From positions 1-40,000 of the forward strand of contig NZ_JAPYRE010000006.1 in the NCBI RefSeq assembly GCF_029936995.1: a stretch of DNA of 40,000 nucleotides. Reading direction: 5' to 3'. The notes beneath the pieces are model-generated. The model saw only the letters and a list, made by a program, of their open reading frames with translations, was not told the DNA's origin and did not search any database. Shown here piece after piece: positions 1,009 through 15,743 of this stretch; the stretch's first letter is position 1; the number at the start of each line of letters is the position of its first letter. The translations under genes were made by a program, and so were the position numbers. This DNA is from Henriciella sp. (lineage in GTDB: Bacteria > Pseudomonadota > Alphaproteobacteria > Caulobacterales > Hyphomonadaceae).

Positions 1009-1055
1009 ATAAAGGAAAGCCTTGGAATTGCTTTGCCGTGAGGCTAGCAGAAGCC

Positions 1056-1352: not shown

Positions 1353-1379
1353 CCGCTCACCCCGGCGAAGGCCGGGGGG
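1353..1379 (+). repeat. REP-like element copy B (5' portion), abutting the left end of the insertion; contains the left target-site duplication 1360..1377
   Basis: Sequence CCGCTCACCCCGGCGAAGGCCGGGGGG. The 5' arm CCGCTCA is present, but the usual 3' flank TCTC is missing here and is found instead after 14910. Confidence 0.8.
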
Positions 1380-1404
1380 TATAGTGATGTCTCAGAGAAA
1401 ATAT
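1374..1404 (+). repeat. left terminal inverted repeat
   Basis: GGGGGGTATAGTGATGTCTCAGAGAAAATAT compared with the reverse complement of 14866..14896, GGGGGGTATAGTGATGTCCGGTAGAAAATAT. There are 18 matches, then 4 mismatches, then 9 matches. The G6 run overlaps the duplicated target. Confidence 0.8.
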
Positions 1405-1438
1405 CTACGCGGTACAAGTAGAGCGAGCCCGAAGCTCG

Positions 1439-2464
1439 CTACGTCCGGTAGGTCCAGGGAGCGTTCAATTCGAACTGCTCCGATGTACAGAGGTAGAGCA
1501 GGTCGCGAACGGCGGTTATTGCATTTCCTGACTGATGTGGACGCGCATCCTGACTACGATGCATCAGCTCGTTACGTGCCTTTCTTAGTTCATTCAGCCG
1601 ATCGGTAAGGTATTTATCAAGCACCCCGTACTTCTCCAAATGTGCAATACGATCAGCTGCCCGCATTTCCTTCAACTTATTCTTGGAAATCGTCTCATCG
1701 CTACTTCTCTCGGCAAACCCAGCCTTGGCGGGATGCCCTACGACAAACCCAGCTGAGTACAACAACTCCTCTAAAAGCACTTCTGCAATTGTCGCACTGA
1801 GTGCGACGCTTGCTCCAGCGTGCTGACGAGAGTGGAGTACAACAGCTTGATAAGTCATCGTTATAAGAGCGGTGTAATCGGCAACTCTGTTTTCTGAATT
1901 GGCTGCCATCAGACGATCAGCAAGTTCAACACCCTCGCGGAACTGCTCGCTTGAAATTGAATTTTGCCATGCCGAGCGACCTTGTGGAGCTGCACTTGCC
2001 AGCAAAGCCCGTAGTCGTTGCTCGTCGCTCTTAAAAAACTCAACTTCGTTTGTGGTAGAGGATCGGTCCCAATTGAATAGCTCATCCAGCCCTGGGTAAC
2101 GTGGCTCCTTGATGGATGAATTTTTTGAGAAGGCGTACTTTCCGAATATGCAGGCTGATACAAATACCGCCTGCTCAAGTCGTCGGGTTTGAACTTCCAG
2201 CATGTTATCTCTGCTCTGAGTAACGACCTCAGGTATTACGCCCGGCGCGTCGCTATCAAATAGGTCGAACTTTCCAAGGTTGGTTTTTTCAAAATCGAAA
2301 GCGAGCAGACCTACATTGACTGCTACAACCGTCAGACCATTGTTGAGCGTATATTCGGCAGAAATTCGGGTAGTAAGCTTACGATCTCCGGAAGGCTGGT
2401 CATACGTGTAGTAGGCGTTCGGCAAGATCGCGAACCGGGTCGGGAACGGTCTAGAAATGATCAT
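1439..2464 (-). CDS. hypothetical protein with C-terminal HEPN-like Rx4H motif
   Basis: 341-aa ORF with low-GC codon usage. The C-terminal helical region contains LNELRKARNELMHRSQ, i.e. R-N-x-x-x-H (codons 1559..1576), the signature of HEPN RNase domains. I recognise nothing in the N-terminal ~280 aa. Confidence 0.45.
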   Translation of the reverse strand: MIISRPFPTRFAILPNAYYTYDQPSGDRKLTTRISAEYTLNNGLTVVAVNVGLLAFDFEKTNLGKFDLFDSDAPGVIPEVVTQSRDNMLEVQTRRLEQAVFVSACIFGKYAFSKNSSIKEPRYPGLDELFNWDRSSTTNEVEFFKSDEQRLRALLASAAPQGRSAWQNSISSEQFREGVELADRLMAANSENRVADYTALITMTYQAVVLHSRQHAGASVALSATIAEVLLEELLYSAGFVVGHPAKAGFAERSSDETISKNKLKEMRAADRIAHLEKYGVLDKYLTDRLNELRKARNELMHRSQDARPHQSGNAITAVRDLLYLCTSEQFELNAPWTYRT

Positions 2465-2479
2465 AGTATTTTCTTGAAC

Positions 2480-4090
2480 TCAGGAGGATATCGGCCAATC
2501 GGCCAATGGTATTTCACGCACCAATCTGTCCTTAACTTGATGGGTGGTCATGCCGTATCGTTTCGCTAATTCCTCGCAAGCGCTGTTGCGGCTCCTGAAC
2601 ACTTCTCCTTCAAACTTAAATGGTTTTGCGGAAGTAGGCCCCAAGGGAGCGGTCAAAGCCTCTTCAACACTCATTCCTGACTTAATGCGATAATCAAAAA
2701 CGTTTCGGCGGACGCCGTGCGCGTCCAAAGCAGCTTGTTTTGTCGTCCATGTCTTACCGAACGCGGCGAACTTCTTGCCATGTGTTCGCCGAACTACTTG
2801 CTTCGACGACATTAGCGTCCAATTGTCAGGTCCCCACGGTCGCGATTCATCTGAGCGCGTCAGCATTAGTCCAGACTGATCGATGGTCCCGATGTCGGAT
2901 TTAAATTGATTATAATCGAGCCAAGCTTCTTCTACGCCGCTCTCTCCCGCACGTTTGAGAATGCCTTTCCACTGCCGCCATAGTTCACCGCCAGCGTCTG
3001 GATGATTGCTTTGGGCTCGCGCTGTTTCAGGTAGGGGTTCGTTGTTTCGGTAGCGATTGATAATGACGTGAGTGGCCAACCCGGTTTCATCGGAGAGTAC
3101 TCTGGCCATCTTTTCTATCGATCTAAACTCTCGCCCCTGCCAATTTACTCGCTTTCCATCATATCGGCCAATCTGGCCTCCGGGACGGACATTGTATCCT
3201 TGTGGATGCAGGCTATTAAGCTTTTCAATCCAGAATATTTCTCGTTGATCCAGACCATCTGCCGATCTCCCGGCACTCTCCAAAGAAATCTCTTCTAGAA
3301 CTTGGAGCCTAAACGCAGCCCCACCTTTCTTTCGCAAGGCTTTATGAAAAGGTGTCTTGCTTCCAGTCTCAGCGTAATTGAGATGTTGTCGGAAGCGGAT
3401 TTGCGGTTTGTTGACTGTTAGCCCGACGTAGGTTTTTCCCGTCGCCTTTTCGATGATTGCGTAGATGTAGCCAGGTTCATTAGATTCGGTTGGTGGTTCA
3501 CGCAAAAGGTCGTCCGTATCCCACTGAGCCTTTCGTCGAGAGTTCAATAAGCCTTTGTCGGCGTAGCGTCCTATAGACTTCAAAAAGGCGGTGAAGCCAG
3601 AATAGTCGCCTTGAGCGTTTGGATATTCCGTACCAGAGTAAGAGAATCCGGAGCGCCGCCCACCTCCGTAGAAAGTCTTCCAGTCGGCGCTGGATAATAG
3701 GGCGGCATCGCGGAGTGCGGATTGGGATATTTCTGTTCTTCGCTTCGCTAATGAAGTGAGCCGAGTTCTGAAAACGGGATATTGAACGGAGCCATCGGCC
3801 AAATCAGCATAAAGCACGTCGACGCGTTGCTCGCCATCATCTGTCTCTACCCATGTCACTCGGGAGCCGTGTTTACGGCGATAAACCTCCGGCGTGGAGT
3901 ACAAACACTCCTCAACCACTTCTTCGGTTAATTCCCCTTGTTTCGCTCTCGTACGTAGACGCCCGCCGATTGTTACTGCTTTGTTTGTGGGTGGAGGTAC
4001 CGCTGCGTCTAATAGCTCCGACAAAGAGCGATATACATACCCACGAAAGGGAAGATTAGGGAGTTGGGCATTGTGGGCTCTCTTTGCCAA
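2480..4090 (-). CDS. multi-module GIY-YIG endonuclease (homing-endonuclease-like) with repeated putative DNA-binding modules
   Basis: 536 aa. The central GIY-YIG domain (about 3176..3478) reads PGYIYAIIEKATGKTYVGLTVNKPQIRFRQH...REIFWIEKLNSLHPQGYNVRPGG. There are four copies of a ~35-aa module: FRGYVYRSLSEL, WQGREFRSIEKMARVLSDETGLATHVIINRYR, FGKTWTTKQAALDAHGVRRNVFDYRIKSGMSVEEAL and FEGEVFRSRNSACEELAKRYGMTTHQVKDRL. Confidence 0.75.
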   Translation of the reverse strand: MAKRAHNAQLPNLPFRGYVYRSLSELLDAAVPPPTNKAVTIGGRLRTRAKQGELTEEVVEECLYSTPEVYRRKHGSRVTWVETDDGEQRVDVLYADLADGSVQYPVFRTRLTSLAKRRTEISQSALRDAALLSSADWKTFYGGGRRSGFSYSGTEYPNAQGDYSGFTAFLKSIGRYADKGLLNSRRKAQWDTDDLLREPPTESNEPGYIYAIIEKATGKTYVGLTVNKPQIRFRQHLNYAETGSKTPFHKALRKKGGAAFRLQVLEEISLESAGRSADGLDQREIFWIEKLNSLHPQGYNVRPGGQIGRYDGKRVNWQGREFRSIEKMARVLSDETGLATHVIINRYRNNEPLPETARAQSNHPDAGGELWRQWKGILKRAGESGVEEAWLDYNQFKSDIGTIDQSGLMLTRSDESRPWGPDNWTLMSSKQVVRRTHGKKFAAFGKTWTTKQAALDAHGVRRNVFDYRIKSGMSVEEALTAPLGPTSAKPFKFEGEVFRSRNSACEELAKRYGMTTHQVKDRLVREIPLADWPISS

Positions 4091-4122
4091 TTTGTCCTCA
4101 GTTTGCGTTGGTCTCAGCTAGC

Positions 4123-4344
4123 TTATTCATCGAGAGTTTGTTCATTCAAAAAATCTCGTGGGTGTACATTAAGCGCTTCAGCGATGCGCCCCAGCATTTC
4201 AACGGTCGGATTGTATTCACCCCGTTCAATGCCGCCGAGATAGCGCATATCCATGTCCGCTGTGAGTGCAAGTTGTTCCTGGCTCAGGCCCGCCTGCCTT
4301 CGAATTTTTCGAATGTTCAGGCCAACGACCTTTTCCCAAAACAT
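4123..4344 (-). CDS. XRE-family helix-turn-helix transcriptional regulator
   Basis: 73 aa with the classic Cro/C1 HTH: LNIRKIRRQAGLSQEQLALTADMDMRYLGGIERGEYNPTVEMLGRIAEAL. Confidence 0.85.
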   Translation of the reverse strand: MFWEKVVGLNIRKIRRQAGLSQEQLALTADMDMRYLGGIERGEYNPTVEMLGRIAEALNVHPRDFLNEQTLDE

Positions 4345-4378
4345 TCAGCCAATTAGTTAAACAAAATGCAACCTCACT

Positions 4379-4394
4379 AGGGTATATATACCCT
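4379..4394. promoter_or_regulatory. perfect 16-bp palindrome, candidate operator of the XRE regulator
   Basis: AGGGTATATATACCCT is its own reverse complement. It lies in the 93-bp divergent intergenic region between the XRE gene (start 4344) and the secreted-protein gene (start 4438). Confidence 0.5.
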
Positions 4395-4437
4395 ATTATG
4401 TGGCCTACCCCGTATGGATGGGCGAATGGAGGTTGCT

Positions 4438-5157
4438 ATGTATCGGTTCGTGACAGTTTTGCTTGTAGCGGGTGTGGCGTTTGCAAGCTCGGCAGATGCC
4501 GAACAAATCACACACCAAACGGAAGCCAACGCATCGCTAGAATTTAACTGGCCGGATATTAACTCTGACATCATTCCGGACGCTCGCGTGAAAGGCGCTG
4601 TCAGAGGTGCGAGAGAAAACTATCAAAGAGCAATTAATGCTGCCGAGCGGGCGAATGCATCCGCTGGGAAATTGCCAGGTTATATCGAAGAAGGAGAACC
4701 ATTCCGGGAGATTGTCTCTGAGGGTGTAATCCTCGAAGGCGTACTCTTCGATAAGGGAGTGCCCCCTCAACAGAAATTATTTGCCGGAGAAATCGAATAC
4801 GAGACGGGCTCTACCGCTCGCGGGCTTGTGGCATTCCTATACTATCCGGACATGTCGAATTGGGGGGAGGTGGTTGCAGACTTTGCACCCGAAAAACCCT
4901 ATTCGCAATTTGAAGGTGATATGAAGCGCCCGTCTGAAGCTGGCGCTTATCCAATGGAAGGCGTGCTCACATACCGCAATGGCGACACCTTCACTGGCTT
5001 GTTCTACACGTGGGGTGGGGCCAGCGGCATCTACGAAGCCGCGAATGGAAAGCGCAGTTTTTCAGGCGACTTCGATACCGTGGGTCTTATGATGCATCCC
5101 AAGAAAGGGGTGGTCGAAGATCAGAACGGTCAGCTTCTTTCGGTTGTTCTTGACTAG
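4438..5157 (+). CDS. secreted hypothetical protein (signal peptide; weak MORN-like repeats)
   Basis: ATG at 4438 is preceded by GGAGG at 4428..4432. The N-terminus MYRFVTVLLVAGVAFASSADA is a typical Sec signal. GVLTYRNGDTFTGLFYTWGGASGIYEAANGKRSFSGDF is weakly MORN-like. Confidence 0.55.
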   Translation: MYRFVTVLLVAGVAFASSADAEQITHQTEANASLEFNWPDINSDIIPDARVKGAVRGARENYQRAINAAERANASAGKLPGYIEEGEPFREIVSEGVILEGVLFDKGVPPQQKLFAGEIEYETGSTARGLVAFLYYPDMSNWGEVVADFAPEKPYSQFEGDMKRPSEAGAYPMEGVLTYRNGDTFTGLFYTWGGASGIYEAANGKRSFSGDFDTVGLMMHPKKGVVEDQNGQLLSVVLD

Positions 5158-5164
5158 ATACCTT

Positions 5165-6976
5165 TCATGAAAACACCGCAAGCGGCCTGGCATCTGGCTC
5201 AGGATATCCAGTGTCCCCCACCTTGTTCGCTTCTTTCCCAATCAACTGAACGCCGGTCACCTCAACGGTCCGGCGATATGTTTCTCCGGTATCGACCGGC
5301 CCGCCATTCTCGAACTTGTCTTCCGGGCTGAGATGATAGAGCGCTATCGCCTCAGCATAGGTCTTCAGCTGATCTAGGCTGATTGGCTCGCTGGTTTCGC
5401 GATCGAAGACCTTCCCGGCGAGACTGGCACTATCCCGTTCAAACGGCGCAATCGGTTTCGGCAACCTCATCTTTCGTGGCCGCCCCCGCCTAGACGGTTC
5501 AGCCTCTTCGACCGGCATATCCACCCAGGCTTCTGTCCTCGCCGTCGGCGCGGCCATGAATCCATAGGGCTTTACCCGTGCCTCGTATGGTTTCCCCGCA
5601 TTGAAATGCTTCATGTAGCGCAGCATTTCCGGGCTTGTTGCACCCCACCGCATCAAGGCCGGATTGGAGAGCGCTGGATGGAAATCGATGCGAACTTGAT
5701 CCGGCGTACCGTCCAGGGCGGCTTTCAGGATAAAGAACCAGAAATCATACTGCCAGCGATGGATACCCATTGCCCGTAAGTCTTCGATCGGCGGGGGAAC
5801 ACCGGGTGCTGGATCATCTTCCGAATAAGGCGGCATCCATTGCCCAAGCCCATGGGCTGAAGCTTTCCGAATGACCGGCAAGCCATCTTTACCGATATTG
5901 AACAAGGCATAGCGCTTGGCTGAAATCGCCCATGCAAACAAGGGTTCAATCTCTTCATCCGATCCGGGGGCATAGTTCACATCCTCGATTTGAAGAATGG
6001 AGCCCGCCTCCTTGTAGGGATTGAGGTGGGTGAACCAATCGACAACCGTGTTGACGCGAGCGTGAAAGTCACTCCGCGAAAGGCCATCAGGCCGGGCAAG
6101 TGCAATACTGTCTGTGTCGCAGAAGACCCAACTGAGGCCCGCATCCTGACCCACCCGTTCCGCACAGGCGAGCATGAGCCGCGCGGCGCCGGTGATCATG
6201 GCGGCGAGCACGGGATTGAAATATGTGCCGGGCCTCTCGCTTGCGGTTGAGTGGAAGGTGAAAGGCTTACCATCCAACCCGATGACATGCAGGTCTGCCG
6301 GATCGCTCAGATCATCGCGGACAATTTCGGCAAAGATGCCATAACAGGTCGAGTTCGCGAGGATTTTGAGCTGGCTCTGGATTGGGTCGCCCGCCGCTTT
6401 CGCCTCGTCCCGCATATCGATGAGCCGGACAAACATATCCTCCGTGTTCGGATCGAAGAGATATTCTTTCCGGCCCAAGAGATTTATCGGTCTCAGGTCG
6501 GGTTGTTTCGGTCCAGCCGTGAACCGCACGGCCTTTTCAATCTGCGGGACTTTGCCAGTCAGGAGTTTTGAAGCGACAATATCCGCCAGCGTGTACCAAA
6601 GAGGCTTTTCCGACACGACATGGTTTAGACCGATCGTCGCTGTCTGGCGCTCTTCGCTGTAGCGTGCCCGCACAGGCAAGGCGTCACTCTCCGGTCGAAG
6701 CTGCACGATCGCATGAAGCTCACCCCAGATGTCCTGACGGTTCAAATCTTCCAGGGTGACGTTTTCGAGAAAGCGCTGAATAGCTTCGGTGTCCTCGAAA
6801 TGATCGAAATGCGTCGCGACCAGGAAGGCATTCAGCCCCATGAGCGCATTGACGGTTGGATACATCGACTTGAAGTCGCAATAGACGACTTCGCGAATGG
6901 ACCGGCGGATGCGAACTTCCGCCCGCCCGCCATAATAGGTGGTCATGGTTTGCCCAAAGATTTGACGATTAAGCAT
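5165..6976 (-). CDS. polB: family-B DNA polymerase, polymerase (palm/fingers/thumb) portion
   Basis: 603 aa with YYGGRAEV (pre-motif A), VVYCDFKSMYPTV (motif A, DxxSxYP), LKILANSTCYGIF (motif B, KxxxNSxYG), VFCDTDSIAL (motif C, DTDS) and ISAKRYALF (KxY). The motifs are collinear with the phi29-type protein-primed PolB as I remember it. Confidence 0.9.
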   Translation of the reverse strand: MLNRQIFGQTMTTYYGGRAEVRIRRSIREVVYCDFKSMYPTVNALMGLNAFLVATHFDHFEDTEAIQRFLENVTLEDLNRQDIWGELHAIVQLRPESDALPVRARYSEERQTATIGLNHVVSEKPLWYTLADIVASKLLTGKVPQIEKAVRFTAGPKQPDLRPINLLGRKEYLFDPNTEDMFVRLIDMRDEAKAAGDPIQSQLKILANSTCYGIFAEIVRDDLSDPADLHVIGLDGKPFTFHSTASERPGTYFNPVLAAMITGAARLMLACAERVGQDAGLSWVFCDTDSIALARPDGLSRSDFHARVNTVVDWFTHLNPYKEAGSILQIEDVNYAPGSDEEIEPLFAWAISAKRYALFNIGKDGLPVIRKASAHGLGQWMPPYSEDDPAPGVPPPIEDLRAMGIHRWQYDFWFFILKAALDGTPDQVRIDFHPALSNPALMRWGATSPEMLRYMKHFNAGKPYEARVKPYGFMAAPTARTEAWVDMPVEEAEPSRRGRPRKMRLPKPIAPFERDSASLAGKVFDRETSEPISLDQLKTYAEAIALYHLSPEDKFENGGPVDTGETYRRTVEVTGVQLIGKEANKVGDTGYPEPDARPLAVFS

Positions 6977-7877
6977 CGTGATCCCTCCGCAGAAGCGGGC
7001 GAATATTCATTTCGCGCAGGAGGGCTTTGCCGAGACTGGCTTCACTGAGAATACGTTTGAGCGGCGTCGATAGACCGAAGTCCGCATAGGTTTTGGCGAG
7101 AGCCGTGTAACAATCCCAGGTCACTTGAACATCAGCCCGTGCATAGTCGAGATATTGCCAGCTAAGGGGGCCGCCATGCTCATCGGTCTCGTGTTTCCGT
7201 GTCGGCGTGTTCAGACGCTCTGCCAGTTTGCCGAGAGAGAACCGGCCTGAGAGAAGCGCTGCCGCCAAGGTCCGCACATCCAGAAAGGTCCCACGATTGT
7301 GTTCTGTTTTCTCATTGCGTTTGCGCATGCCTCGAGATTGCTGCTGATCACCCGGCGTGGCGAAATCCATAAGCGCGGCTGTGGCGTTGAGATGTTTGAC
7401 GCGAATGTTCGGATCGCTCTTCCAGCGGGTGGACCAGAATGTGAAGCCGCCACGCATACTGCCCCGCGCTTCGCTTGCTCCTTTGGCGATCCGGGCGATA
7501 TCAAAGGGTAGATTAAATCCGATGATCGCTCCATTGGCGCGATAGCCAATATCCAGAATGACACTCTTGCGGAAATCCTCGACGGTGAGAACCGTCAACC
7601 CGTTCGCGGTGGCATAATCGGAAATCAGCGTCTGTTCCGCCTGCGGTAAATCCGGCGCCGTGAAGATCACCTCCTTGATCAACACGCCGGCTTTACGGAT
7701 TTGAGCGACACCGAAGCGAAGCGTCTGGATCGCATCGCTTGTGGTTTCAGTGTCGAAGATGATTTGCCAATCCGATGTCAGGTCGAATTCAAAGCCTGCG
7801 GGGCGGAAGACCTTCGGTGTCCAGTTAGAAGGCTCGGAATAGGCCCGCACATGTATATGAGTTCTGAAAGTGCTCAT
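6969..7877 (-). CDS. polB: family-B DNA polymerase, N-terminal 3'-5' exonuclease portion
   Basis: IIFDTETT (ExoI, DxE), IIGFNLPFDIARI (ExoII, NxxxFD) and YLDYARADVQV (ExoIII, YxxxD). The likely start is ATG at 7877 (MSTFRTHIHV), overlapping the HNH stop as ATGA. The stop overlaps the next ORF's start as ATGCTTAA (6969..6976). Confidence 0.85.
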   Translation of the reverse strand: MSTFRTHIHVRAYSEPSNWTPKVFRPAGFEFDLTSDWQIIFDTETTSDAIQTLRFGVAQIRKAGVLIKEVIFTAPDLPQAEQTLISDYATANGLTVLTVEDFRKSVILDIGYRANGAIIGFNLPFDIARIAKGASEARGSMRGGFTFWSTRWKSDPNIRVKHLNATAALMDFATPGDQQQSRGMRKRNEKTEHNRGTFLDVRTLAAALLSGRFSLGKLAERLNTPTRKHETDEHGGPLSWQYLDYARADVQVTWDCYTALAKTYADFGLSTPLKRILSEASLGKALLREMNIRPLLRRDHDA

Positions 7878-8251
7878 TGGTCTGCCTCCTCGTCTTTGGA
7901 GGCGGCTTCGGCCTCTTCGATGAGGGACTGGCCGAATGACTTCAGCGGATGCGAAATCTGAAACAGCCAATCCGCCAGGGCATCGAGGTAACGCCCGATA
8001 GTCTCCCGGTCGGGGTCTTGGGTATTAGGCTTGAACGACATGTCTTTCTCCTTGTCGGTAGAATTGCGATGGCAATTGCTGCAAAGCGCTCCGCCCGTGC
8101 CGATCGCGAACTTTCTGGGTATGAGGTGGGCGAATTCGAGGGCTGCCGGGTGGGCGTTGAAAGCGCACCAGAGGCAGATTGGATGGCGTGATTTGAGGCG
8201 CCGGAAATCGGCCTCGCGCCTTAGGTCTTTTCGGGTAATGTCAGACAGCAT
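7874..8251 (-). CDS. HNH endonuclease-like protein
   Basis: 125 aa with CLWCAFNAHPAALEFAHLIP....GGALCSNCHRNSTDKE, i.e. a CxxC ... H ... CxxCH arrangement typical of the HNH/zinc-ribbon nuclease core. Confidence 0.65.
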   Translation of the reverse strand: MLSDITRKDLRREADFRRLKSRHPICLWCAFNAHPAALEFAHLIPRKFAIGTGGALCSNCHRNSTDKEKDMSFKPNTQDPDRETIGRYLDALADWLFQISHPLKSFGQSLIEEAEAASKDEEADQ

Positions 8252-8268
8252 GATGCAGTCCTCCTTCT

Positions 8269-8847
8269 TCAGGGGTTGGTGATCTTGTAGATTTCGTGGA
8301 ATTCCGGCTCGCTCTTCAGGGCGTAGCGGATGATCGAATTGGGATTGGTTTCGAACGGGTAGAACCGGCCTTTGATGTCGGTCACGCCCTGTCCGCGATA
8401 AGGCTCAAGAAAGCGAGGGTCTTTGCTCCGCAGGAATTTCCGGATGTCGTTATGGTAGTGCCCGGCAAGGCTCGCGGGCGCGAAGCCTGGTACAGTGACG
8501 GCCTTGGTCTTGGCATCCTGGATGACCGGAATACGCCGGGGGCGTGTATCTCCGATGACCCAACGGCGGCCCTGCTTCTGGCCAAGACCGGTTTGAGCGA
8601 GATACCAGGACAACCGTTCCGGTGAGATGCCCGCGTCCCTGGCGGCAGCGGTCATGGACATGCCGCCATTCATGATTTTCAGGGCTTCATTGATCTTCGC
8701 GTCCGCGCGGGGCGGTGCGGCTTTCCCGGTGGCACGGACCTCGGATGGCTTGGGATGTCCGCGTGCCTGGGAGAGGCTTAAACCCCGAGCGAGACCGCGT
8801 TCCTTGCGGCGTCTATATTCGGCTGCGTAGTTGCGTTTGCGGGCCAT
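8269..8847 (-). CDS. putative DNA-binding (HTH) protein, first gene of the HNH-PolB operon
   Basis: 192 aa with a basic N-terminus, MARKRNYAAEYRRRKERGLARGLSLSQARGH. The HTH-like segment is GGMSMTAAARDAGISPERLSWYLAQTG. Confidence 0.5.
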   Translation of the reverse strand: MARKRNYAAEYRRRKERGLARGLSLSQARGHPKPSEVRATGKAAPPRADAKINEALKIMNGGMSMTAAARDAGISPERLSWYLAQTGLGQKQGRRWVIGDTRPRRIPVIQDAKTKAVTVPGFAPASLAGHYHNDIRKFLRSKDPRFLEPYRGQGVTDIKGRFYPFETNPNSIIRYALKSEPEFHEIYKITNP

Positions 8848-8849
8848 GC

Positions 8850-8876
8850 TCGATCCGATTGCTGCGTTCGGATCGA
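8850..8876. promoter_or_regulatory. 9-bp inverted repeat immediately upstream of the HTH-HNH-PolB operon
   Basis: TCGATCCGA (8850..8858) and TCGGATCGA (8868..8876) are perfect reverse complements, starting 3 bp upstream of the start codon at 8847. Confidence 0.35.
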
Positions 8877-8936
8877 ATTTCGGAGAGCACGCCGTTCAGT
8901 AATAGATTTCAGAAACGTCCAACATAAAATCGGACA

Positions 8937-9632
8937 TTATTGAACGTTTTTGGACGGCCAGAGCCCTGCTTTTATGAGGTTATTTCTCGTGATGAAAAAT
9001 GAGGTTCGGCCGAACTTTTGATGTACGCCCTGCTTGCTGTATAGCTTCCGAGCCATTCGGACTGCTTCACTGCGTTGTTGGCTCGCACTCCACTGATGAA
9101 AATCGTTGTATACGTTCAAGCACTCTAGAAGAACCTTCCGCCGGTACATCTCATAAGAATGAGCGCCGCCCGGCTTCGCGTGTTTGTGCGGACTCTTTTG
9201 CTTGCGGTCAGTATTGCTGCTAAATGTTGCTGCGGTCTCTCGACCATGTGTACTGAGATCGATCAGTTTGATGCGGTCGTATCTAAGACTTTCATCGCCT
9301 GCGCTATTCTGGTCGATGTCTAGTTCGGCAGTTGGCCAGAAGCCCGCGGGTATTCGATCGAGCCGATTACCAGCTCCACCGAAGACGCAGCGTCCAATAG
9401 CCTCGACCTGTCCTCGGGATAAATCCGTCACGATCTCATCGCGGGCACGACGCCAGACATCCTTATGCTGTAGGCCGCGCAGCATGTAGTCCGCTGTCGC
9501 CTCTGACACAGGATGATTGGAGGCGTTCCACTTCTCCAGCAATTCCGGATTGTCAGGGAGAGACCGTTTTCGACTTTCAAAAAAGTCTCTCAGCCAGACG
9601 CCATCGGCCCATATATTCTCGATATTTTCCAA
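8937..9632 (-). CDS. hypothetical protein, divergent from cas1
   Basis: 231-aa ORF with low-GC codon usage and no motif I recognise. A 40-bp gap separates it from the divergently transcribed Cas1 gene. Confidence 0.5.
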   Translation of the reverse strand: MENIENIWADGVWLRDFFESRKRSLPDNPELLEKWNASNHPVSEATADYMLRGLQHKDVWRRARDEIVTDLSRGQVEAIGRCVFGGAGNRLDRIPAGFWPTAELDIDQNSAGDESLRYDRIKLIDLSTHGRETAATFSSNTDRKQKSPHKHAKPGGAHSYEMYRRKVLLECLNVYNDFHQWSASQQRSEAVRMARKLYSKQGVHQKFGRTSFFITRNNLIKAGLWPSKNVQ

Positions 9633-9672
9633 TGATCTATGCTATGGTTTGGCCAGAAAAGTGGGGTGAGTT

Positions 9673-10755
9673 TTGGCTTTCGAAGCTGGTCAAGAAAACG
9701 AGACAATCGAAGCTGACGAATGGTCTATTCGTAGCAAATATTGGTTAGCCAAAAACGAAGCTGGTCTGTCAAAACGAAAACGCCGCGAGCGCCGCAAAGA
9801 CCCGCTCATTCTGGTCGGTTACGGCCTTTCGATGAAGGTCGACAATGGCCGTCTGATCATCCAGGACGGCGCCACGCATTTTCCGAGTAAACCCGCTCAA
9901 CACGTCTTCTTCAAAGGTAGTCTCGACTTACCGCCGCGGATCATTGTTTTGGATGGTGCGGGCTCAATCACACTCGACGCCTTGGATTGGCTGACAGAAC
10001 AGAACGTCCCGCTCATTCGTATCAGATACAATGGCGAGTTCTTCTCGCTGGTCACATCTGGCGGTCAGGCCGCTGACCCGGATAAGTTTGCCTGGCAGAT
10101 TAGAGCCCGCGAAGACGACGCTGAGAAACTGACCTTCTATCTACCACTCATGCGCGACAAGCTAGCTAACGCGCTCGCAACACTCGACGGTTATCTGCCT
10201 GCTTCTGAGGCTCGCGATAAAGCTGAAGAGAAAATCGGCAGCTATCTGCACCGGCTGCAGAATGATCCGCCGGATAAGCTAAAGTCTCTGCTCGGTATCG
10301 AAGCACAATCCGCCAGTCTCTATTTCGCCGCATGGCGGGCGCTGGAAATCAATTGGCGGGAAAGCAAGCGTCATCCTATTCCGGTGGAGTGGCGCAGCTT
10401 CTATTCGCGGGGCTCGCTCGCCGTTCTGAACAAAGGCGGGGCCAACATCTTCGCGACACATCCCGTCAATGCGATGCTGAATTACGTCTACGCAGTCCTC
10501 CTCGGAAGAATGCAGCTTCAAGCGATCACGGAAGGCTATGATCCGATGCTTGGTGTGGTCCACACGCGACGACGCTCAAGCTATGGCCCGCCTCGGCCCG
10601 GCTACGCGATCGACATCATGGAGCCGCACCGTCCGGTAGTCGATCGGATCGTTCTGAAATTGATCAATGAGGAGACGTTTTCCGGGGCGGATTTTGATTT
10701 GCAGAGTGATGGGGTGGTGCGGGTTAATCCGGAATTTGCTCGAAGCCTGGCTTAA
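9673..10755 (+). CDS. cas1: Cas1-family integrase homologue (stand-alone; casposase-like)
   Basis: 360 aa with a TTG start. The N-terminal beta domain reads PLILVGYGLSMKVDNGRLIIQDG ... PRIIVLDGAGSITLDALDWLTEQNVPLIRIRYNG. The helical domain has the Cas1 catalytic pattern: GIEAQSASLYF (Glu210), HPVNAMLNYVYAVLLG, PMLGVVHT (His297) and YAIDIMEPHRPVVD (Asp314/Glu317). Confidence 0.85.
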   Translation: MAFEAGQENETIEADEWSIRSKYWLAKNEAGLSKRKRRERRKDPLILVGYGLSMKVDNGRLIIQDGATHFPSKPAQHVFFKGSLDLPPRIIVLDGAGSITLDALDWLTEQNVPLIRIRYNGEFFSLVTSGGQAADPDKFAWQIRAREDDAEKLTFYLPLMRDKLANALATLDGYLPASEARDKAEEKIGSYLHRLQNDPPDKLKSLLGIEAQSASLYFAAWRALEINWRESKRHPIPVEWRSFYSRGSLAVLNKGGANIFATHPVNAMLNYVYAVLLGRMQLQAITEGYDPMLGVVHTRRRSSYGPPRPGYAIDIMEPHRPVVDRIVLKLINEETFSGADFDLQSDGVVRVNPEFARSLA

Positions 10756-10798
10756 CAGATTGATACCTGCGAGTAGTCGGAAATCACTGAAGAAACAG

Positions 10799-13700
10799 CT
10801 AAGAAATTCCCGGCTTGTTTTCCTGAGAAATTCTTTCTTCAGCTTCCCGATCAGCCCAGCCTTGGTCACTGGTGGCTATCGAGCGCAACAACGATTGCGT
10901 ACGCGGAAAGTCGTCTAGCTCATCCGCCCACCGCCGAAATTTTTTGGCTGACTCAGCGTAGTAGTCTTCCATAGGTCCCGAAATAACTCCGCGAGAATTG
11001 AACTGTCCTGTGCGCAAGGCAGAGATCAGCCGCTCATTTGGATACTTCTCAATCACTTTACGTACGGCGGTATGTGGCCAGATGTTATCCGTGGGATCGA
11101 CTGGCGATTTAGAAAGCAACTGCCCGATGGCTATTGAGGCTCCTTTTTCGAACCGCTTATCCCGCGCAATCTCAAAGAGCTTCTCAACCCACAACATCAA
11201 CGCGTCATCATCGATACGCCCTTCACTCGAACCAGGCATTACGTTCATGTTTTCAATGATGTGGAAAGCCGGTCGCCACATTCCTTCGTCGGGCTGATCG
11301 TCGCCCAACGAAGAGGCCTGCCTGGGCTCGTCTTTCGGGGCATCATCCTGCTTGTACAGAATTGGAATTAGCTCGAAGAACTCTGCAGGCTCTTTCGCAA
11401 GGAATCTGTACAGCGCAGGAGTTCTTTCCGGACCATTGAATCTAAGCGTCTCAGCTAGCGGAAATTCGAGCTTTGCAAGCTCGCTCAAACTCAAAGCACC
11501 GCGGTCTTCAGCGATGCCTAGGAGTTCCCAGTAGTGATATAAGTCAAGCTGTCCTCTTGGCCGTCCCTCACTATGAGCGTTCGACACACTTTTTAGGTAC
11601 TCGTTCGCAGTTAGCCGAACAGTTTCGATTGGCACGGAAGGATCGTTCGCCACCACATGAGCTAAGTCGTGGATGCGGCCCACGCTTTTGAACCCGTCGA
11701 CAACGGCCTGCGAAAGGTTATCGCCCACGAATGAGTATGCATTGGCTGATCTCCAAAATCCTGAAGATACTTGCGGTGGTAATCCCCCAGTTGTCGCGGC
11801 ATCCAGAATTGGGGTCGCGTTATAGAGCCCTTCCCCAACTAACTCGCTGAGGTGTTTAGAGAACGCGTCAGTCTTGGAATTGATAATAGCAACCCATTCG
11901 GCTGGATTTTTTATGGCAGCTCCTCGGGACATTCCTCGGATGAGTTCTTGGCCGTGCTCACTATCCGGGGACACCGTCAAGATGTGATCCATAATTGCTG
12001 AGGAGTTGGGCGTGGCTTGGGCTAAAGCTACCCCAGCGGCAAAAGGCGATGCCACTTTTTGCAAGAAGTCTGAAAGCTCATCTGCGTACTTATTGAGTAT
12101 GCCTTCAAGAGCCAACCTTCGCAGTTCAGCCAAATCGCTTTGCGGATCATCGGTTCGCTCGCGAAATGTCTCGACCCAGCTCGATTTAAACAGCCAAAGA
12201 TAACGGTTGGAGTTATCTGGTTGAAGTCTTTCAAACTCCATCTCCAACTGACTTAATCGTTCATCCTCAATCGCCCAATCAGCATCGGAAAACTGACGAT
12301 GGCGTCCGGTGAATGTTCTCAATGCTTCGACCAATTCGTCCGCGCCGGTGTCATCGCCATTGATGCTGGATATGTGCGCAACAAAGCGCTCGAATAAGTC
12401 GTTCACCATGGAAGGCACGCATTCTACCAACTTTGCCAGATCAGCGGCATTTGTCGAAGCAACACTGATTGCTTGATCAACCGCTTCATCACGAACTTCG
12501 TAAAAATCACCCCAAGTTAAGCGTTGCTCCTGGACCCTTGAGAAAATTGGTTTGCTGGTGCTCATCACAATGCGCCCGCCCCTATTGTCCAATAGAGGAA
12601 CTAGCAATTCCAAAACGTGCGGACCGAACTCGTTTGCTAGACCGCGAATGATCTTCGCTCGTTGCTTTGTTCCTGCAGCTGTTTGAGGCACACCAAAGGA
12701 CAGAATTCCCTGGAGCGACGATAAAGGCTGATTTCCTTGCCTTTCATCGATTGGGGACACTGCCAAATGAAGCTTCATCAAGAGCCGACAAACAAGCTCT
12801 ACATGCTCGGACAACCAGGCGAGGCGTTCGAGGGCCCACAAAAGAGACGCCCCCAAATGAAAATCCATGAAACTAAACTTGGACTCTTGCGCCTTAAAGA
12901 CTGCGGCCATTCCTTCGGCGTTCCCCTCGATGGCCGCTTCGAGGGACTCCAGAAAAGGCTGAGGAGCGCCTTCGGCGAGTAGGGGCAACCATTCTTCGAT
13001 GGCAGCACCAAATTTGGGATTATCCAGAAGCTGAGGGACGCTCGATTGATAGACGCTGCGACACCAATCAGCACATTTCTGTCCGTGAGGACGAAGACTC
13101 AAGTCGGGGTCTTCGCCAAATACCCCGATCAAAACAAAGGTAAGTATCACCCCTCCGACAAAGTCACTGCTGAAGCCGGAATATTCTGAAGGGTCGAAAA
13201 CTTGATCTCTATCTACACCCTGCTGAACTTTATCGTTCAACACTACACGGAGTAGATTCTCGAAAGCATCGTAGTCGTCGTCAGTGTAATAGCGTGCAAG
13301 CCTAAAAAATGCGTCGACTGGTCCATTTAGCGTTACGATGCTAGTCGTCGCAACAAACATGGGGTCTGCCGAACCAGCTCGGGCCAGTGGATTTCGCCCG
13401 TACTTGCGAACGACCGACTCGATCTGTGAATACGTTTCAACACCTGCGTGTTGCTTTAGTGCTTCAACATCCTTGTAGATGAAGTTTCTCTTAGCTCCGT
13501 GCTCGCCTCGCTCTTCACGTCGGACAGCTCGACTTACGTTCCAAGCAGCAATCATTCCAAGGCGTTTGAGAAGTGGGGCGTCCGTTAAATCTGGATCAGC
13601 CCATGGGCATTTCTCCCCTTCGACAGTACCTCTAAGCCGTTCTAGTGCAGACAAATTTCGCCCGGCCGCTTTTTCAATGGTTTCGGCGTTCTGCGAACCA

Positions 13701-14689
13701 ACCGGTTTAATATGTTTTGCGAATGTCGACACATCAGGTCGTTGGAGCAAATAGCAACTCGCTAGACCGGGGTCGGACGAAATAGCTTTAGCAACCAAAA
13801 CGGAGTGCCGCTCCAACCGATTTGGATAAGCCGCCGCTTCTCCTTCGAGGATTACGATATGTCGAGTTCCAACCTTTTTGAGCAGATTCAATCCGGCTTC
13901 GTTTTGGACGCAGACGACCGGAATATGCTCTAGTTCTGGAGAGCTCAAACATAGTTGGCAAGCTGCCACGGCTGCCTCTCTGTCTGAATTCCCAAGCAAG
14001 TAGCTAATGGGTTCTTCTCTCAGGAGTGCATCGCGTAGTTCGAGCAGTGACGATTGCCCGTCGAGAAGGATTTCTGGCGAGACTTCGTCTCGAAAACGAC
14101 GCTTCCAAAGACTTATTCGTTCTTCGGCAGAACAGACTCCGTATGCAGAAGCATTGGGGATTAATCCGATTTCTTCAAGCAGCCATAGGCAAGTATCGAC
14201 ATCCCGGTTTACCCAGTCAATTAATCGAGACTGATCAAAAAGCACCACCTTCTTGAACTTCGTGTCCTTGGTGGCCTTTTCCTGCCAAAGCACCTTTTTC
14301 TCTTCGCCCTTTTTGCCGACCTCAATCTCGCCTGACCAGGTAGCCCGCCCAACCATGACGAATGCAAAATCGCTAGGCTTAGCCAACGCGTTTTCGACTC
14401 TTTCGAGTTCCTCGTTTGCTTTCTTGATGAGACCGGACCGCGAAGATGTAGCACCATATTCGATGCAAACGTTGCCCTCTGGTATTCCTTCACATTTTTC
14501 CTCAAGTACAACTACACCATCAAATCCCGTGACCCGATAGTTTTCACCGTCGACAGTGTAGGTGTTCGCGAGTTTTACTCCTCCCGTTGATACGTTGAGT
14601 AAGCGCTTGAACAACTCGGGAAGGATTTTTTCCCAGTCTGCATTCTTTTCGGTAGATTCGAAATGCGTCTTTTCAATTAGTCGAGCCAC
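10799..14689 (-). CDS. very large hypothetical protein (~1300 aa), mostly alpha-helical
   Basis: The track ORF is 10799..14728 (GTG). An in-frame GTG at 14689 is preceded by AAGGAG (14695..14700) with 5-nt spacing, so it is the more likely start. No Walker, helicase, methylase or clear nuclease motif is seen by eye. Confidence 0.7.
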   Translation of the reverse strand: MARLIEKTHFESTEKNADWEKILPELFKRLLNVSTGGVKLANTYTVDGENYRVTGFDGVVVLEEKCEGIPEGNVCIEYGATSSRSGLIKKANEELERVENALAKPSDFAFVMVGRATWSGEIEVGKKGEEKKVLWQEKATKDTKFKKVVLFDQSRLIDWVNRDVDTCLWLLEEIGLIPNASAYGVCSAEERISLWKRRFRDEVSPEILLDGQSSLLELRDALLREEPISYLLGNSDREAAVAACQLCLSSPELEHIPVVCVQNEAGLNLLKKVGTRHIVILEGEAAAYPNRLERHSVLVAKAISSDPGLASCYLLQRPDVSTFAKHIKPVGSQNAETIEKAAGRNLSALERLRGTVEGEKCPWADPDLTDAPLLKRLGMIAAWNVSRAVRREERGEHGAKRNFIYKDVEALKQHAGVETYSQIESVVRKYGRNPLARAGSADPMFVATTSIVTLNGPVDAFFRLARYYTDDDYDAFENLLRVVLNDKVQQGVDRDQVFDPSEYSGFSSDFVGGVILTFVLIGVFGEDPDLSLRPHGQKCADWCRSVYQSSVPQLLDNPKFGAAIEEWLPLLAEGAPQPFLESLEAAIEGNAEGMAAVFKAQESKFSFMDFHLGASLLWALERLAWLSEHVELVCRLLMKLHLAVSPIDERQGNQPLSSLQGILSFGVPQTAAGTKQRAKIIRGLANEFGPHVLELLVPLLDNRGGRIVMSTSKPIFSRVQEQRLTWGDFYEVRDEAVDQAISVASTNAADLAKLVECVPSMVNDLFERFVAHISSINGDDTGADELVEALRTFTGRHRQFSDADWAIEDERLSQLEMEFERLQPDNSNRYLWLFKSSWVETFRERTDDPQSDLAELRRLALEGILNKYADELSDFLQKVASPFAAGVALAQATPNSSAIMDHILTVSPDSEHGQELIRGMSRGAAIKNPAEWVAIINSKTDAFSKHLSELVGEGLYNATPILDAATTGGLPPQVSSGFWRSANAYSFVGDNLSQAVVDGFKSVGRIHDLAHVVANDPSVPIETVRLTANEYLKSVSNAHSEGRPRGQLDLYHYWELLGIAEDRGALSLSELAKLEFPLAETLRFNGPERTPALYRFLAKEPAEFFELIPILYKQDDAPKDEPRQASSLGDDQPDEGMWRPAFHIIENMNVMPGSSEGRIDDDALMLWVEKLFEIARDKRFEKGASIAIGQLLSKSPVDPTDNIWPHTAVRKVIEKYPNERLISALRTGQFNSRGVISGPMEDYYAESAKKFRRWADELDDFPRTQSLLRSIATSDQGWADREAEERISQENKPGIS

Positions 14690-14865
14690 GTCCGCTCCTT
14701 GTTCAGGCCCAAGTTGATTCGGTATCACTTATGTTGAGTAGAGCAACATTATTTGGTGAGCTCAGCAAATTAGCCCGCCTCATTGGCTCATTGAACGGTG
14801 AAACCACTAGATGTCACATCGATCATGATCGAGGAGCTTTCAGTATCGCTCGCCTGATGAGCGCA

Positions 14866-14896
14866 ATATTTTCTACCGGACATCACTATACCCCCC
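14866..14896 (-). repeat. right terminal inverted repeat
   Basis: ATATTTTCTACCGGACATCACTATACCCCCC. Its reverse complement matches 1374..1404 at 27/31 positions. Confidence 0.8.
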
Positions 14897-14914
14897 GGCG
14901 AAGGCCGGGGTCTC
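14893..14914 (+). repeat. right target-site duplication = 3' portion of REP copy B
   Basis: CCCCGGCGAAGGCCGGGG is 18/18 identical to 1360..1377 and is followed by the TCTC flank seen in REP copies A and C. The CCGCTCA 5' arm is absent because the element end abuts directly. Confidence 0.8.
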
Positions 14915-14945
14915 CATGAGACTTGGTCCGGAGCTTTTACTGCCC

Positions 14946-14974
14946 GAGATCCCGGCCTTCGCCGGGATGAGCGG
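14946..14974 (-). repeat. REP-like palindromic element, copy C
   Basis: The reverse complement is 29/29 identical to copy A (922..950). It lies 31 bp beyond the TCTC flank of the restored copy B (14914), about 35 bp beyond its hairpin, mirroring the 33-bp spacing of the A/A' doublet. Confidence 0.85.
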
Positions 14975-15695: not shown

Positions 15696-15743
15696 TACCG
15701 TTGGCTAAGTCCGGCAGGAGTTTGGTGCCTCAAGATATCCGCC

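Follow-up and report, generated by a model that had tools for sequence, protein, structure and literature searches.

Genes and boundaries of the element

The window, by which we mean the whole 40,000-nucleotide stretch of Henriciella sp. DNA analyzed here, includes a cas1 gene that lies among genes for a PolB in two parts, an HNH endonuclease and several other proteins, all within an element of 13,519 bp (Table 1). The element is bounded by 29-nt terminal inverted repeats (TIRs; GGGGTATAGTGATGTC...), whose left and right copies are identical at 25 of 29 nucleotides, including all of the outer 16. Its termini end ...CTATACCCC-3' (in a longer form, ...GACATCACTATACCCC-3'), as is conserved in related elements, and the 14-mer GGTATAGTGATGTC occurs solely at the two borders, in inverted orientation (two hits were obtained in 0 of 100 shuffles). 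Immediately outside the TIRs lies the duplicated target (TSD), which is a direct and not an inverted repeat because its loop, GAAG, is oriented alike at both copies. The longest exact direct repeat at the ends extends over 18 bp (1360-1377 and 14893-14910, 18/18). A boundary of 1378-14893 with an 18-bp TSD was considered, and was replaced by 1376-14894 with a 14-bp TSD, given that related elements have four G/C outside the repeat.

The insertion is intergenic, between a small GIY-YIG gene and a 180-aa ORF. Deletion of positions 1376-14908 in silico rebuilds a palindromic host repeat unit of ~100 nt, the CCGCTCAYCCCGGCGAAGGCCGGG unit, which is 68% identical to an intact neighboring unit. A tRNA gene as target was ruled out, as none is present at either end of the element. 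The low G+C content of the element (~52% vs. ~65%) indicates that it is foreign DNA. The window holds one copy of it, and comparison of all of its ORFs with Pfam, NCBIfam, PHROGs and PADLOC revealed no other recombinase or transposase, nor does any gap fit another gene.

Table 1. Positions in the window of the genes, terminal repeats and duplicated target of the element
Feature	Position	Strand	Description
Left TSD	1362..1375	.	CCGGCGAAGGCCGG, 14 bp; exact direct repeat of 14895-14908
Left TIR	1376..1404	+	GGGGTATAGTGATGTCTCAGAGAAAATAT; same terminus seen in related elements
Cargo ORF	1439..2464	-	341 aa; sub-threshold DUF4145/HepT-like matches
Cargo nuclease	2480..4090	-	536 aa; GIY-YIG domain and C-terminal HNH/restriction-endonuclease PHROG matches
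Cargo XRE-family HTH regulator	4123..4344	-	73 aa, 'control protein'-like; upstream of nuclease gene
Cargo ORF	4414..5157	+	247 aa; no detectable family
PolB, polymerase half	5165..6976	-	603 aa; motif A YCDFKSMYPT, motif B KILANSTCYG, motif C FCDTDS, KRY
PolB, 3'-5' exonuclease half	6969..7970	-	333 aa (longest ORF); ExoI FDTET, ExoII NLPFD, ExoIII YARAD
HNH endonuclease, core	7874..8251	-	125 aa; PHROG HNH families 3e-6 to 1e-4; kept in 34 related loci
Conserved core protein	8269..8847	-	192 aa; adjoins HNH in 53 related loci; HTH-like by eye alone
ORF divergent from cas1	8937..9632	-	231 aa; poorly conserved, weak homologues in L002, L005 and L027 alone
cas1 casposase gene	9673..10755	+	360 aa; active site E210/H297/E317; no C-terminal HTH domain
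Cargo protein	10799..14728	-	1,309 aa (gene callers 1,296 aa); rare family; phrog_18693 5e-83
Right TIR	14866..14894	-	reverse complement GGGGTATAGTGATGTCCGGTAGAAAATAT
Right TSD	14895..14908	.	CCGGCGAAGGCCGG, 14 bp

The module formed by PolB, HNH, the 192-aa protein and Cas1 recurs in ~35 related loci. The 192-aa protein has no match to Pfam or to any other family, and an HTH was not confirmed in it. As to the cargo, the 536-aa nuclease matches Pfam GIY-YIG (35.4 bits) and PHROG homing-endonuclease families (4e-17), while its residues 386-526 match phrog_3377, an HNH endonuclease (3e-11). The 73-aa regulator matches Pfam HTH_3 (61 bits) and the PADLOC model Control_protein (2.5e-15), and its gene is also called in a related locus, L018. 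The 341-aa ORF has no homologue among 98 related loci. For the 1,309-aa protein, 6 homologues were found in 5.8 billion proteins, and no Pfam, PADLOC or NCBIfam model matched. We rejected the idea that the cargo is a known defence system, since PADLOC gave just the C-protein-like HTH and weak homing-endonuclease matches.

The two halves of PolB meet where the stop of the exonuclease gene overlaps the start of the polymerase gene (ATGCTTAA), with GGAGG 6 nt upstream; gene callers start the exonuclease half at 7877, giving 302 aa. The polymerase half matches a PHROG DNA polymerase (7e-9), and homologues in which PolB is fused exceed the Pfam PF03175 cutoff (30.7 bits against 25.8). The best Pfam model is PolB_2 ('organellar and viral'), and searches of solved structures with the sequence and with a profile returned no match. 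The Exo I-III and Pol A/B/C/KxY motifs are invariant among the homologues. The split is common to the present element and HenMar-C2, a published Henriciella element discussed below, and the halves are intact in both (68-73% identity); in 34 other related loci PolB is fused. A recent frameshift or an assembly error was rejected as the cause, because the split and its overlap recur in HenMar-C2 and the split is also present in an independent Logan assembly. PolB of the two Henriciella elements would be made from two translationally coupled genes, exonuclease and then polymerase, but the split could instead be a disabling lesion that both elements inherited. The conserved two-gene PolB is a lesser curiosity that bears on split replicative polymerases. 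The PolBs of family-3 casposons have been termed RNA-primed (Krupovic 2016, PMC4779613).

The Cas1 protein is closest to a casposase

The product of the cas1 gene is a Cas1-fold enzyme that is nearest to the M. mazei casposase and has a full active site. The gene model of the initial annotation, a forward-strand ORF of 360 codons with a TTG start, is borne out: the frame is closed by a stop at 9667, and M54 is the next candidate start. The peptides that it quoted are all found in the translation, and its codon positions are exact (E210, 10300-10302; H297, 10561-10563; D314-E317, 10612-10623). Alignment to Cas1 structures and HMMs, which it had proposed as a check, gave scores above the cutoffs of Pfam PF01867 (109.6 bits; cutoff 22.3) and TIGR00287 (96.1 bits; cutoff 71.7), and E210, H297 and E317 align with the active-site residues E162, H232 and E247 of the M. 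mazei casposase 6OPM. The catalytic pattern that had been suggested was Glu, His and either Asp or Glu. Its first two residues line up as expected, and the third can now be specified as E317, the glutamate in IMEP. Across 44 Cas1 homologues, D314 and the three catalytic residues are all invariant.

Comparisons of three kinds favor a casposase over a CRISPR Cas1. With phmmer, 6OPM scores 66 bits, as opposed to at most 46 for any CRISPR Cas1. In profile comparison, the casposase scores 119 bits and CRISPR Cas1 proteins at most 80. An AlphaFold model (pLDDT 83), a structure prediction having also been suggested at the outset, has 6opm_B as its best Foldseek match (E 7e-18, TM 0.68), so that the casposase is the nearest fold as well. 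The basic N-terminal extension that had been remarked on is real. It forms a conserved region of ~45 aa comprising a helix and a basic patch, in which four residues (R20, W24, R35 and R38) are invariant and three more (W17, K36 and R37) almost so.

We considered whether this cas1 might be a leftover or stray component of CRISPR-Cas adaptation that serves an array elsewhere in the genome. The generic Cas1 models are passed, public records label the protein 'CRISPR-associated endonuclease Cas1', and our search for Cas2 and arrays was confined to the 40-kb window. Within that window, the initial statement that there is no CRISPR context holds: scans with Tandem Repeats Finder, a repeat search, ARAGORN and Rfam were negative for CRISPR-like arrays, tRNA genes and RNA families, and neither cas2 nor any other cas gene was found. 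The claim that no Cas2 is adjacent also stands, in that the gaps flanking cas1 measure 40 and 43 nt and its neighbors encode the 231-aa and 1,309-aa proteins. All subtype-specific Cas1 models fall far below their cutoffs (e.g., I-C, 69.7 vs. 385; type II, 56.5 vs. 120). Given also that a casposase is the top match in structure and in sequence, and that the gene is inside a TIR- and TSD-bounded element with PolB and HNH whose synteny is kept in ~35 loci, we attach almost no weight to this CRISPR-Cas explanation of the gene.

Assignment to casposon family 3

The locus combines a Cas1 whose active site is intact and which is linked to neither cas2 nor an array in the window, a PolB in the same element (split into two genes), TIRs with a TSD, and the lack of a rival recombinase, and this combination characterizes casposons. 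As in family 3, PolB and Cas1 are accompanied by HNH and a small conserved protein, the element is inserted between genes, and Cas1 goes with the bacterial casposon clade that includes HenMar, NitAL212, Hyphomonas and other members, a grouping by identity and synteny and not by a formal tree. The Cas1 protein is 58% identical to that of HenMar-C2, 71% to that of a Hyphomonas atlantica locus and 36-38% to those of Nitrosomonas loci, all of which have the same synteny. We therefore conclude, with a probability of roughly 0.93, that Cas1 is the casposase of a complete, intact-looking family-3 casposon that is inserted in the Henriciella sp. chromosome between a DinB-family gene and gyrB. The initial annotation's view that the protein is the integrase of an element and not a spacer-acquisition enzyme is supported by the casposase match at the levels of sequence, profile and predicted fold, by the TIRs and TSD around an element with PolB and HNH, and by the identity to the HenMar-C2 protein. 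That annotation overlooked the PolB and HNH genes, the ends of the element and the prior description of casposon family 3.

Casposons of family 3 have been described since 2014 (Krupovic 2014, PMC4046053) and have been reported from Henriciella (Krupovic 2016, PMC4779613). The present element adds one bacterial casposon to this known family, and its Cas1 needs no fresh explanation. We also detected over 500 loci of one bacterial casposon clade in metagenomes.

The nearest published relative is HenMar-C2 of Henriciella marina DSM 19595, a family-3 casposon (Krupovic et al. 2016, PMC4779613). We rejected an identification of this locus (our L102) as HenMar-C1, since it is HenMar-C2 according to the same paper. 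Both elements are in the same genus and in the same neighborhood of a DinB-family gene and gyrB, and they share the core order Pol-Exo-HNH-192-aa protein-Cas1, termini of the form GGGGTATAGTGATGT(C/T), a PolB split with an ATGCTT(A/G)A overlap, and a TSD that is a hairpin (16 bp in HenMar-C2). Beyond Cas1, the Pol, Exo, HNH and 192-aa proteins are 73, 68, 86 and 77% identical, respectively. However, HenMar-C2 is longer (16.6 kb vs. 13.5 kb), its target hairpin is not like the present one, and its cargo is wholly different, with a glycosyltransferase/SGNH hydrolase and others where we find the GIY-YIG nuclease, the XRE regulator and the 1,309-aa protein; the 1,319-aa protein of HenMar-C2 is unrelated to the latter.

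More distantly, NitAL212-C1 of Nitrosomonas sp. AL212 (Krupovic et al. 2014, PMC4046053) is also a bacterial family-3 casposon with an intergenic location, a 14-nt TSD and a TIR that starts GGGGTATG..., and relatives in Nitrosomonas MAGs share the core module at 36-45% identity. However, the NitAL212-C1 Cas1 has zinc-binding and HTH domains, and the published TSD, AGCCGGTACTGCCC (as given in machine-read text), has no obvious palindrome. The M. mazei family-2 casposase (PDB 6OPM; Hickman et al. 2020, PMC6977970) provides the best match in sequence, profile and fold, with the same E/H/E active site. Its casposon has a similar transferred end (...TATATCCC-3', compared with ...CTATACCCC-3' here) and a 14-bp TSD. 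The two proteins are only ~25% identical, and the M. mazei casposase has a C-terminal HTH domain, whereas the Henriciella Cas1 ends with the catalytic domain and is distinguished by its conserved N-terminal helix and basic patch. The targets also differ. In M. mazei the target is the 3' terminus of a tRNA-Leu gene and has a specificity motif upstream, and here it is an intergenic hairpin.

The duplicated target is typically a hairpin

Among related elements for which both ends are available, 10 of 11 have a perfect direct repeat of 14-24 nt that corresponds to a stem-loop, with the loop in the same orientation at both copies. In these ten, the duplicated target (14-16 bp) is a GC-rich stem-loop that belongs to REP-like units or resembles a terminator. 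The stem-loop in the window makes up one arm of a palindromic, REP-like repeat unit of the host, and elsewhere the hairpins are terminator-like. A stable hairpin abuts 79% of 43 termini and 18% of controls, although it is important to consider that the controls were not restricted to intergenic DNA and that the intergenic DNA of GC-rich bacteria abounds in such hairpins. Perfect stems of at least 5 bp are present in 27 of the 43 flanks, compared with 6-10% in four control sets, and the median folding energy of the flanks is -14.9 kcal/mol, vs. -5.2 kcal/mol for controls (Mann-Whitney p ~1e-18). About 20% of flanks are not hairpins (e.g., L045, L050 and L085).

An alternative reading is that the hairpins are palindromic outer parts of the element's own TIRs, rather than duplicated host target, and that the true TSD is very short. 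A palindrome reads nearly alike in both orientations, and our repeat search indeed reports a pair of inverted 46-nt copies, hairpin included. Moreover, palindromes have been noted within some casposon TIRs, HenMar-C1 was published with a 37-nt palindrome-containing TIR and a 1-nt direct repeat, and in one element with two ends, L033, the hairpin is inverted between them. The asymmetry of the hairpins argues against this reading: in 10 of 11 elements the asymmetric loop (in L005 the asymmetric stem too) is oriented alike at both ends, so the direct reading produces perfect repeats of 14-24 nt while the inverted reading breaks at the loop. Among elements whose termini are conserved, the hairpin sequence is wholly different. 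Finally, the hairpin in the window belongs to a family of host repeats of which other copies are found outside the casposon, and the outer flanking sequences make up the rest of the host palindromic unit. We thus regard hairpins as part of the TIRs as improbable.

On correlative evidence, we infer that the casposase picks its site by recognizing a palindrome or hairpin and attacks at two symmetric borders. A more specific proposal, which we advance tentatively and at somewhat less than even odds, is that family-3 casposases of the 'GGGGTATAG' clade recognize their site by a short GC-rich stem-loop with two-fold symmetry and carry out the two strand transfers at the symmetric borders of this stem-loop, such that the TSD is exactly the palindrome. 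We found no description in the accessible literature of a Cas1 integrase that duplicates a palindrome resembling a CRISPR repeat, and both the pattern of hairpin TSDs and the conserved split of PolB go beyond that literature.

Mechanism and mobility

No biochemically characterized family-3 casposase was found in the literature searched. By analogy with characterized casposases, an oligomer of the protein would join the 3'-OH of two ...CCCC-3' ends to two target strands 14-16 bp apart, and gap repair would then duplicate the target between the two strand transfers. The element's own PolB presumably replicates the casposon. We infer that the casposon is mobile, the indirect signs being its perfect TSD and the different insertion hairpins in two Henriciella species.

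The element might instead be a fossil that no longer moves, with Cas1 and its neighbors persisting by inertia or through co-option by the host. Such a fossil would be in keeping with the division of PolB between two reading frames, which is not seen in 34 of 35 related loci, and with the single copy in the window. It would also fit the failure to find an empty site; a look-up of the flanking 180-aa protein gave none, and each contig with the flanking gene also holds the element. That HenMar-C2 occupies the DinB-gyrB locus of another species would suit old vertical inheritance. However, the core ORFs are all intact and have every catalytic motif, and the overlap of SD-ATG and stop at the PolB split is kept in both species. 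The perfect TSD and the identical outer TIR ends argue against an old insertion, as fast-evolving intergenic DNA would have lost them. In addition, the hairpins occupied by the two Henriciella elements are not the same, and the TSD of each element is perfect. We therefore consider a fossil unlikely, though less so than either of the alternatives discussed above.

Implications

Some insertion sequences (e.g., IS1397 and some of the IS110 family) target REP/BIME hairpins and are likewise found at intergenic, extragenic palindromes, a 'safe haven' strategy, but they use unrelated DDE or DEDD transposases and another insertion geometry. The resemblance to CRISPR adaptation by Cas1-Cas2 would be mechanistic: in both cases an integrase with the Cas1 fold would transfer strands at two staggered positions that delimit a short stretch of DNA and thereby duplicate this stretch, and the duplicated segment here is itself a palindrome, as many CRISPR repeats are. 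The differences are that Cas2, an array and a leader are lacking here, that the duplicated unit is 14-16 bp and not 24-47 bp, and that the insert is a 13.5-kb element with specific ends instead of a 30-40-bp spacer.

To our knowledge, the casposases characterized so far are solely archaeal (families 1 and 2) and have the ends of tRNA or aEF-2 genes as targets, while the targets of bacterial family 3 have been described just as 'intergenic'. What could matter is the pattern at the level of the family, namely that the duplicated target in this bacterial clade is typically a small palindromic hairpin. If the casposase does recognize the palindrome, this would account for how these casposons reach harmless landing sites, and it would suggest a compact integrase (360 aa, with no HTH domain and no Cas2) that follows a structural target rule. 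It would also offer a testable model for a symmetric Cas1 oligomer that measures and duplicates a palindromic repeat, the step that is thought to have yielded CRISPR repeats, and these abundant bacterial elements would then be a living example of the intermediate that the casposon-to-CRISPR hypothesis requires.

Identity of the Cas1 protein and the element

The cas1 product is a casposase. It scored 109.6 bits against Pfam Cas_Cas1 (cutoff 22.3) and 96.1 bits against TIGR00287 (cutoff 71.7), and it reached none of the subtype-specific Cas1 models, every score being far under the cutoff. A profile of its clade scored 119 bits against the Methanosarcina mazei family-2 casposase (PDB 6OPM), versus at most 80 bits against any CRISPR Cas1. 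The top structural match of its AlphaFold model (pLDDT 83, pTM 0.76) is 6opm_B (E 7e-18, TM 0.68). The initial annotation proposed a catalytic signature whose codon positions are exact (E210, 10300-10302; H297, 10561-10563; D314-E317, 10612-10623). In a phmmer alignment, E210, H297 and E317 pair with positions 179, 249 and 264 of the deposited 6OPM chain, whose numbering is offset by +17; these are E162, H232 and E247, the casposase active site (Hickman et al. 2020, PMC6977970), so the proposed residues do line up with it. E210, H297, D314 and E317 are invariant across 44 aligned Cas1 homologues.

An in-frame stop at 9667 directly precedes the TTG, and the next start candidate is M54. The same 44 homologues also keep R20, W24, R35 and R38 of the N-terminal extension without exception, which confirms, as had been thought, that the extension is genuine and that translation starts at the TTG. 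At the N-terminus, a conserved helix spanning residues 16-30 leads into a basic stretch. These features are found instead of the C-terminal HTH of family-2 casposases, which is lacking because the protein stops at the end of the catalytic domain; this HTH is likewise reported missing from casposon families other than family 2. The claim that no cas2 adjoins the gene and that CRISPR context is absent also holds for the 40-kb window: the flanking intergenic gaps of 40 and 43 nt leave no space for cas2, and scans of the window detected neither a CRISPR-like array nor any tRNA or Rfam match.

Casposons are defined by Cas1 and PolB within an island bounded by terminal inverted repeats (TIRs) and a target-site duplication (TSD) (Krupovic 2014, PMC4046053). 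Just upstream of cas1, two overlapping ORFs encode the exonuclease (Exo) and polymerase (Pol) halves of PolB. Both match PHROG DNA-polymerase families, and their fused homologues exceed the Pfam PF03175 threshold, with all Exo and Pol motifs invariant among them. The G+C content of the island is about 46-58%, versus about 65% in its flanks. The suggestion that Cas1 is the element's integrase is supported by its location with PolB in a TIR/TSD-bounded island and by a casposase being its best match. The element is a previously undescribed member of casposon family 3, an ordinary yet well-preserved representative of a known family.

Features of the casposon and its surroundings
Feature	Position	Strand	Length	Remarks
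Casposon	1376..14894		13,519 bp	Boundaries set by comparison with relatives
TIRs			29 nt	25/29 identical
TSD			14 bp	CCGGCGAAGGCCGG
cas1	9673..10755	+	360 aa	TTG start
Exo ORF		opposite to cas1	333 aa	ExoI FDTET, ExoII NLPFD, ExoIII YARAD
Pol ORF		opposite to cas1	603 aa	Family-B motifs A YCDFKSMYPT, B KILANSTCYG, C FCDTDS; KRY
HNH endonuclease			125 aa	Next after PolB ORFs; PHROG match
Core protein			192 aa	Next to HNH gene
XRE regulator	4123-4344	-		C-protein-like
Nuclease			536 aa	Immediately downstream of XRE gene; GIY-YIG domain; C-terminal region matches HNH/restriction-endonuclease PHROGs
Two cargo ORFs			341 aa, 247 aa	No assigned function
Cargo protein	10799-14728	-	1,309 aa	phrog_18693 (unknown function), 5e-83
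REP-like unit, intact	916-1014
REP-like unit, split by casposon	1347-1377 joined to 14911-14980			Whole again after in-silico excision
GIY-YIG (URI-type) gene	1038-1340	+	94-100 aa	Small, stand-alone
Inverted repeat	15002-15076			24-nt arms, 88% complementary, 27-nt spacer
Low-G+C patch	15100-15740			44-47%; outside right TSD
Orphan ORF	15153-15695	-	180 aa	In low-G+C patch; no family match

Ends and insertion site

Only two copies of the 14-mer GGTATAGTGATGTC exist in the window, at 1378 and 14892 and inverted relative to each other; two hits turned up in 0 of 100 shuffles. Directly outside lie copies of the 18-mer CCCCGGCGAAGGCCGGGG (1360-1377 and 14893-14910); the loop GAAG reads in one direction in both copies, which makes this a direct repeat. 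From the window alone the exact junction is ambiguous, as it crosses G/C runs. However, four related loci (L002, L003, L090 and L102) have four G/C between repeat and TATAG (five on one side of L003), and the terminal G/C bases therefore belong to the element, whose termini are GGGGTATAG...CTATACCCC. Compared with the transferred 3' end ...CTATACCCC, the M. mazei casposon has a similar end, TATATCCC, and a TSD of 14 bp as well.

Two REP-like palindromes, each about 90-100 nt long and made up of two inverted arms CCGCTCAYCCCGGCGAAGGCCGGG, lie in the host sequence. In-silico deletion of 1376-14908 restores a perfect palindromic unit of ~100 nt (-68 kcal/mol), 68% identical to the intact one; the insertion thus struck one arm of a host REP-like element.

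Around these units, the GIY-YIG gene lies between a DinB-family gene and the casposon, with REP-like units on both sides, and is missing at the corresponding H. marina locus. The inverted repeat sits between a REP-like unit and the 180-aa ORF, which is directly beside gyrB; in H. marina this position is occupied by a 191-aa ORF unrelated to it.

Relatives, polymerase and cargo

The module of Pol, Exo, HNH, 192-aa protein and divergent Cas1 recurs in Hyphomonas, Hirschia, Henriciella, Maricaulis, Nitrosomonas and Bradyrhizobium, and on many metagenome contigs. Relatives of the Cas1 occur in at least 536 metagenomic stretches (marine, soil, peat and wastewater samples); the 2014 and 2016 papers list far fewer bacterial casposons, only a handful. 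An identical Cas1 is recorded from Henriciella sp. MAG GCA_029936055.1. The H. marina DSM 19595 locus (L102) is the published HenMar-C2 (Krupovic 2016, PMC4779613), as its cargo (SGNH hydrolase, glycosyltransferase and others) indicates. It has the same termini and the same flanking host genes as the window element (DinB 65%, GyrB 89% identical). Pol, Exo, HNH and the 192-aa protein are 73, 68, 86 and 77% identical between the two, but Cas1 only 58%, whereas the Hyphomonas atlantica element (L001) shares 71% in Cas1 and only 54% in Pol. These uneven identities suggest that casposons exchange modules.

In nearly all related loci (34 of 35), Exo and Pol are fused in one reading frame spanning about 880-930 aa; the linker of the H. 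atlantica element reads ...MGIQPLLKCQPDIPREGFGRIMSAYYGG... without a break. In the window element and HenMar-C2 the linker changes frame. The window Exo ends ...RRDHDA*, and Pol starts MLNRQIFG within ATGCTTAA (ATGCTTGA in H. marina), with a GGAGG-like sequence 6-8 nt 5' of its ATG. The split could conceivably be a disabling lesion common to both Henriciella elements. It is also seen in an independent assembly, and the halves are intact, keep all motifs and are 68-73% identical between the two; the most economical reading of these sequences would be an inherited, translationally coupled two-gene PolB. Separately, one Nitrosomonas MAG casposon has an in-frame stop codon in its PolB (L009:1129-3864, -), which is therefore possibly an inactivated copy.

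The window cargo set was found in no other related locus compared, and no cargo gene matched a known defence system. Only six homologues of the 1,309-aa protein turned up among 5.8 billion sequences, which makes its family very rare; HTH domains are present in distant homologues, and the window protein has no HTH match. Together, the XRE gene and the nuclease gene directly downstream of it (2480-4344 for the pair, -) have a layout like that of a homing-endonuclease cassette or of the control unit of a restriction enzyme; the casposon contains no methyltransferase.

Hairpin target duplication across the clade

About 100 related loci yielded 46 terminus-like matches with 43 unique flanks. A perfect stem of at least 5 bp ending at the terminus is present in 27 of these (63%), versus 5.9% of random 30-mers, 7.7% of GC-rich, 10.4% of GGGG-ending and 7.0% of shuffled-flank controls, and median folding energy is -14.9 versus -5.2 kcal/mol (Mann-Whitney p about 1e-18) against a folding background of similar G+C content (0.67; flanks, 0.73), the background in both comparisons not being restricted to intergenic DNA. 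Energies of -8 kcal/mol or below are reached by 79% of flanks and 18% of controls.

Both ends are visible in eleven elements (8.2-16.6 kb). In 10 of them the stem-loop itself is the perfect direct repeat at both flanks, asymmetric loops being identically oriented at both ends, and the TSDs, counted with the GGGG ends, are 14-16 bp; in the sole exception, L033 (ends at 100 and 13510), the hairpin is inverted. Hairpin sequences are unrelated from element to element, and the termini are conserved. T-runs follow the terminator-like hairpins of L005 and L059; the flanks of L045, L050 and L085 are non-hairpin. A soil or peat metagenome sub-lineage (L033, L038 and L049) has the common flank sequence CCAACGCATAGTTAGG.

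In the available literature, family-3 casposon sites are described merely as 'intergenic'. Palindromes inside some casposon TIRs are already published, and the A. boonei casposon has one upstream of its TSD, outside the TSD itself. Unlike the hairpin TSDs of this clade, the published TSD of NitAL212-C1 from Nitrosomonas sp. AL212 (PMC4046053) has no obvious palindrome. From the correlation between hairpins and termini, we infer that a two-fold-symmetric hairpin guides site choice: the casposase would recognise it and attack at its borders. What makes these elements interesting is the duplication of hairpins throughout the clade, which may bear on how CRISPR repeats arose.
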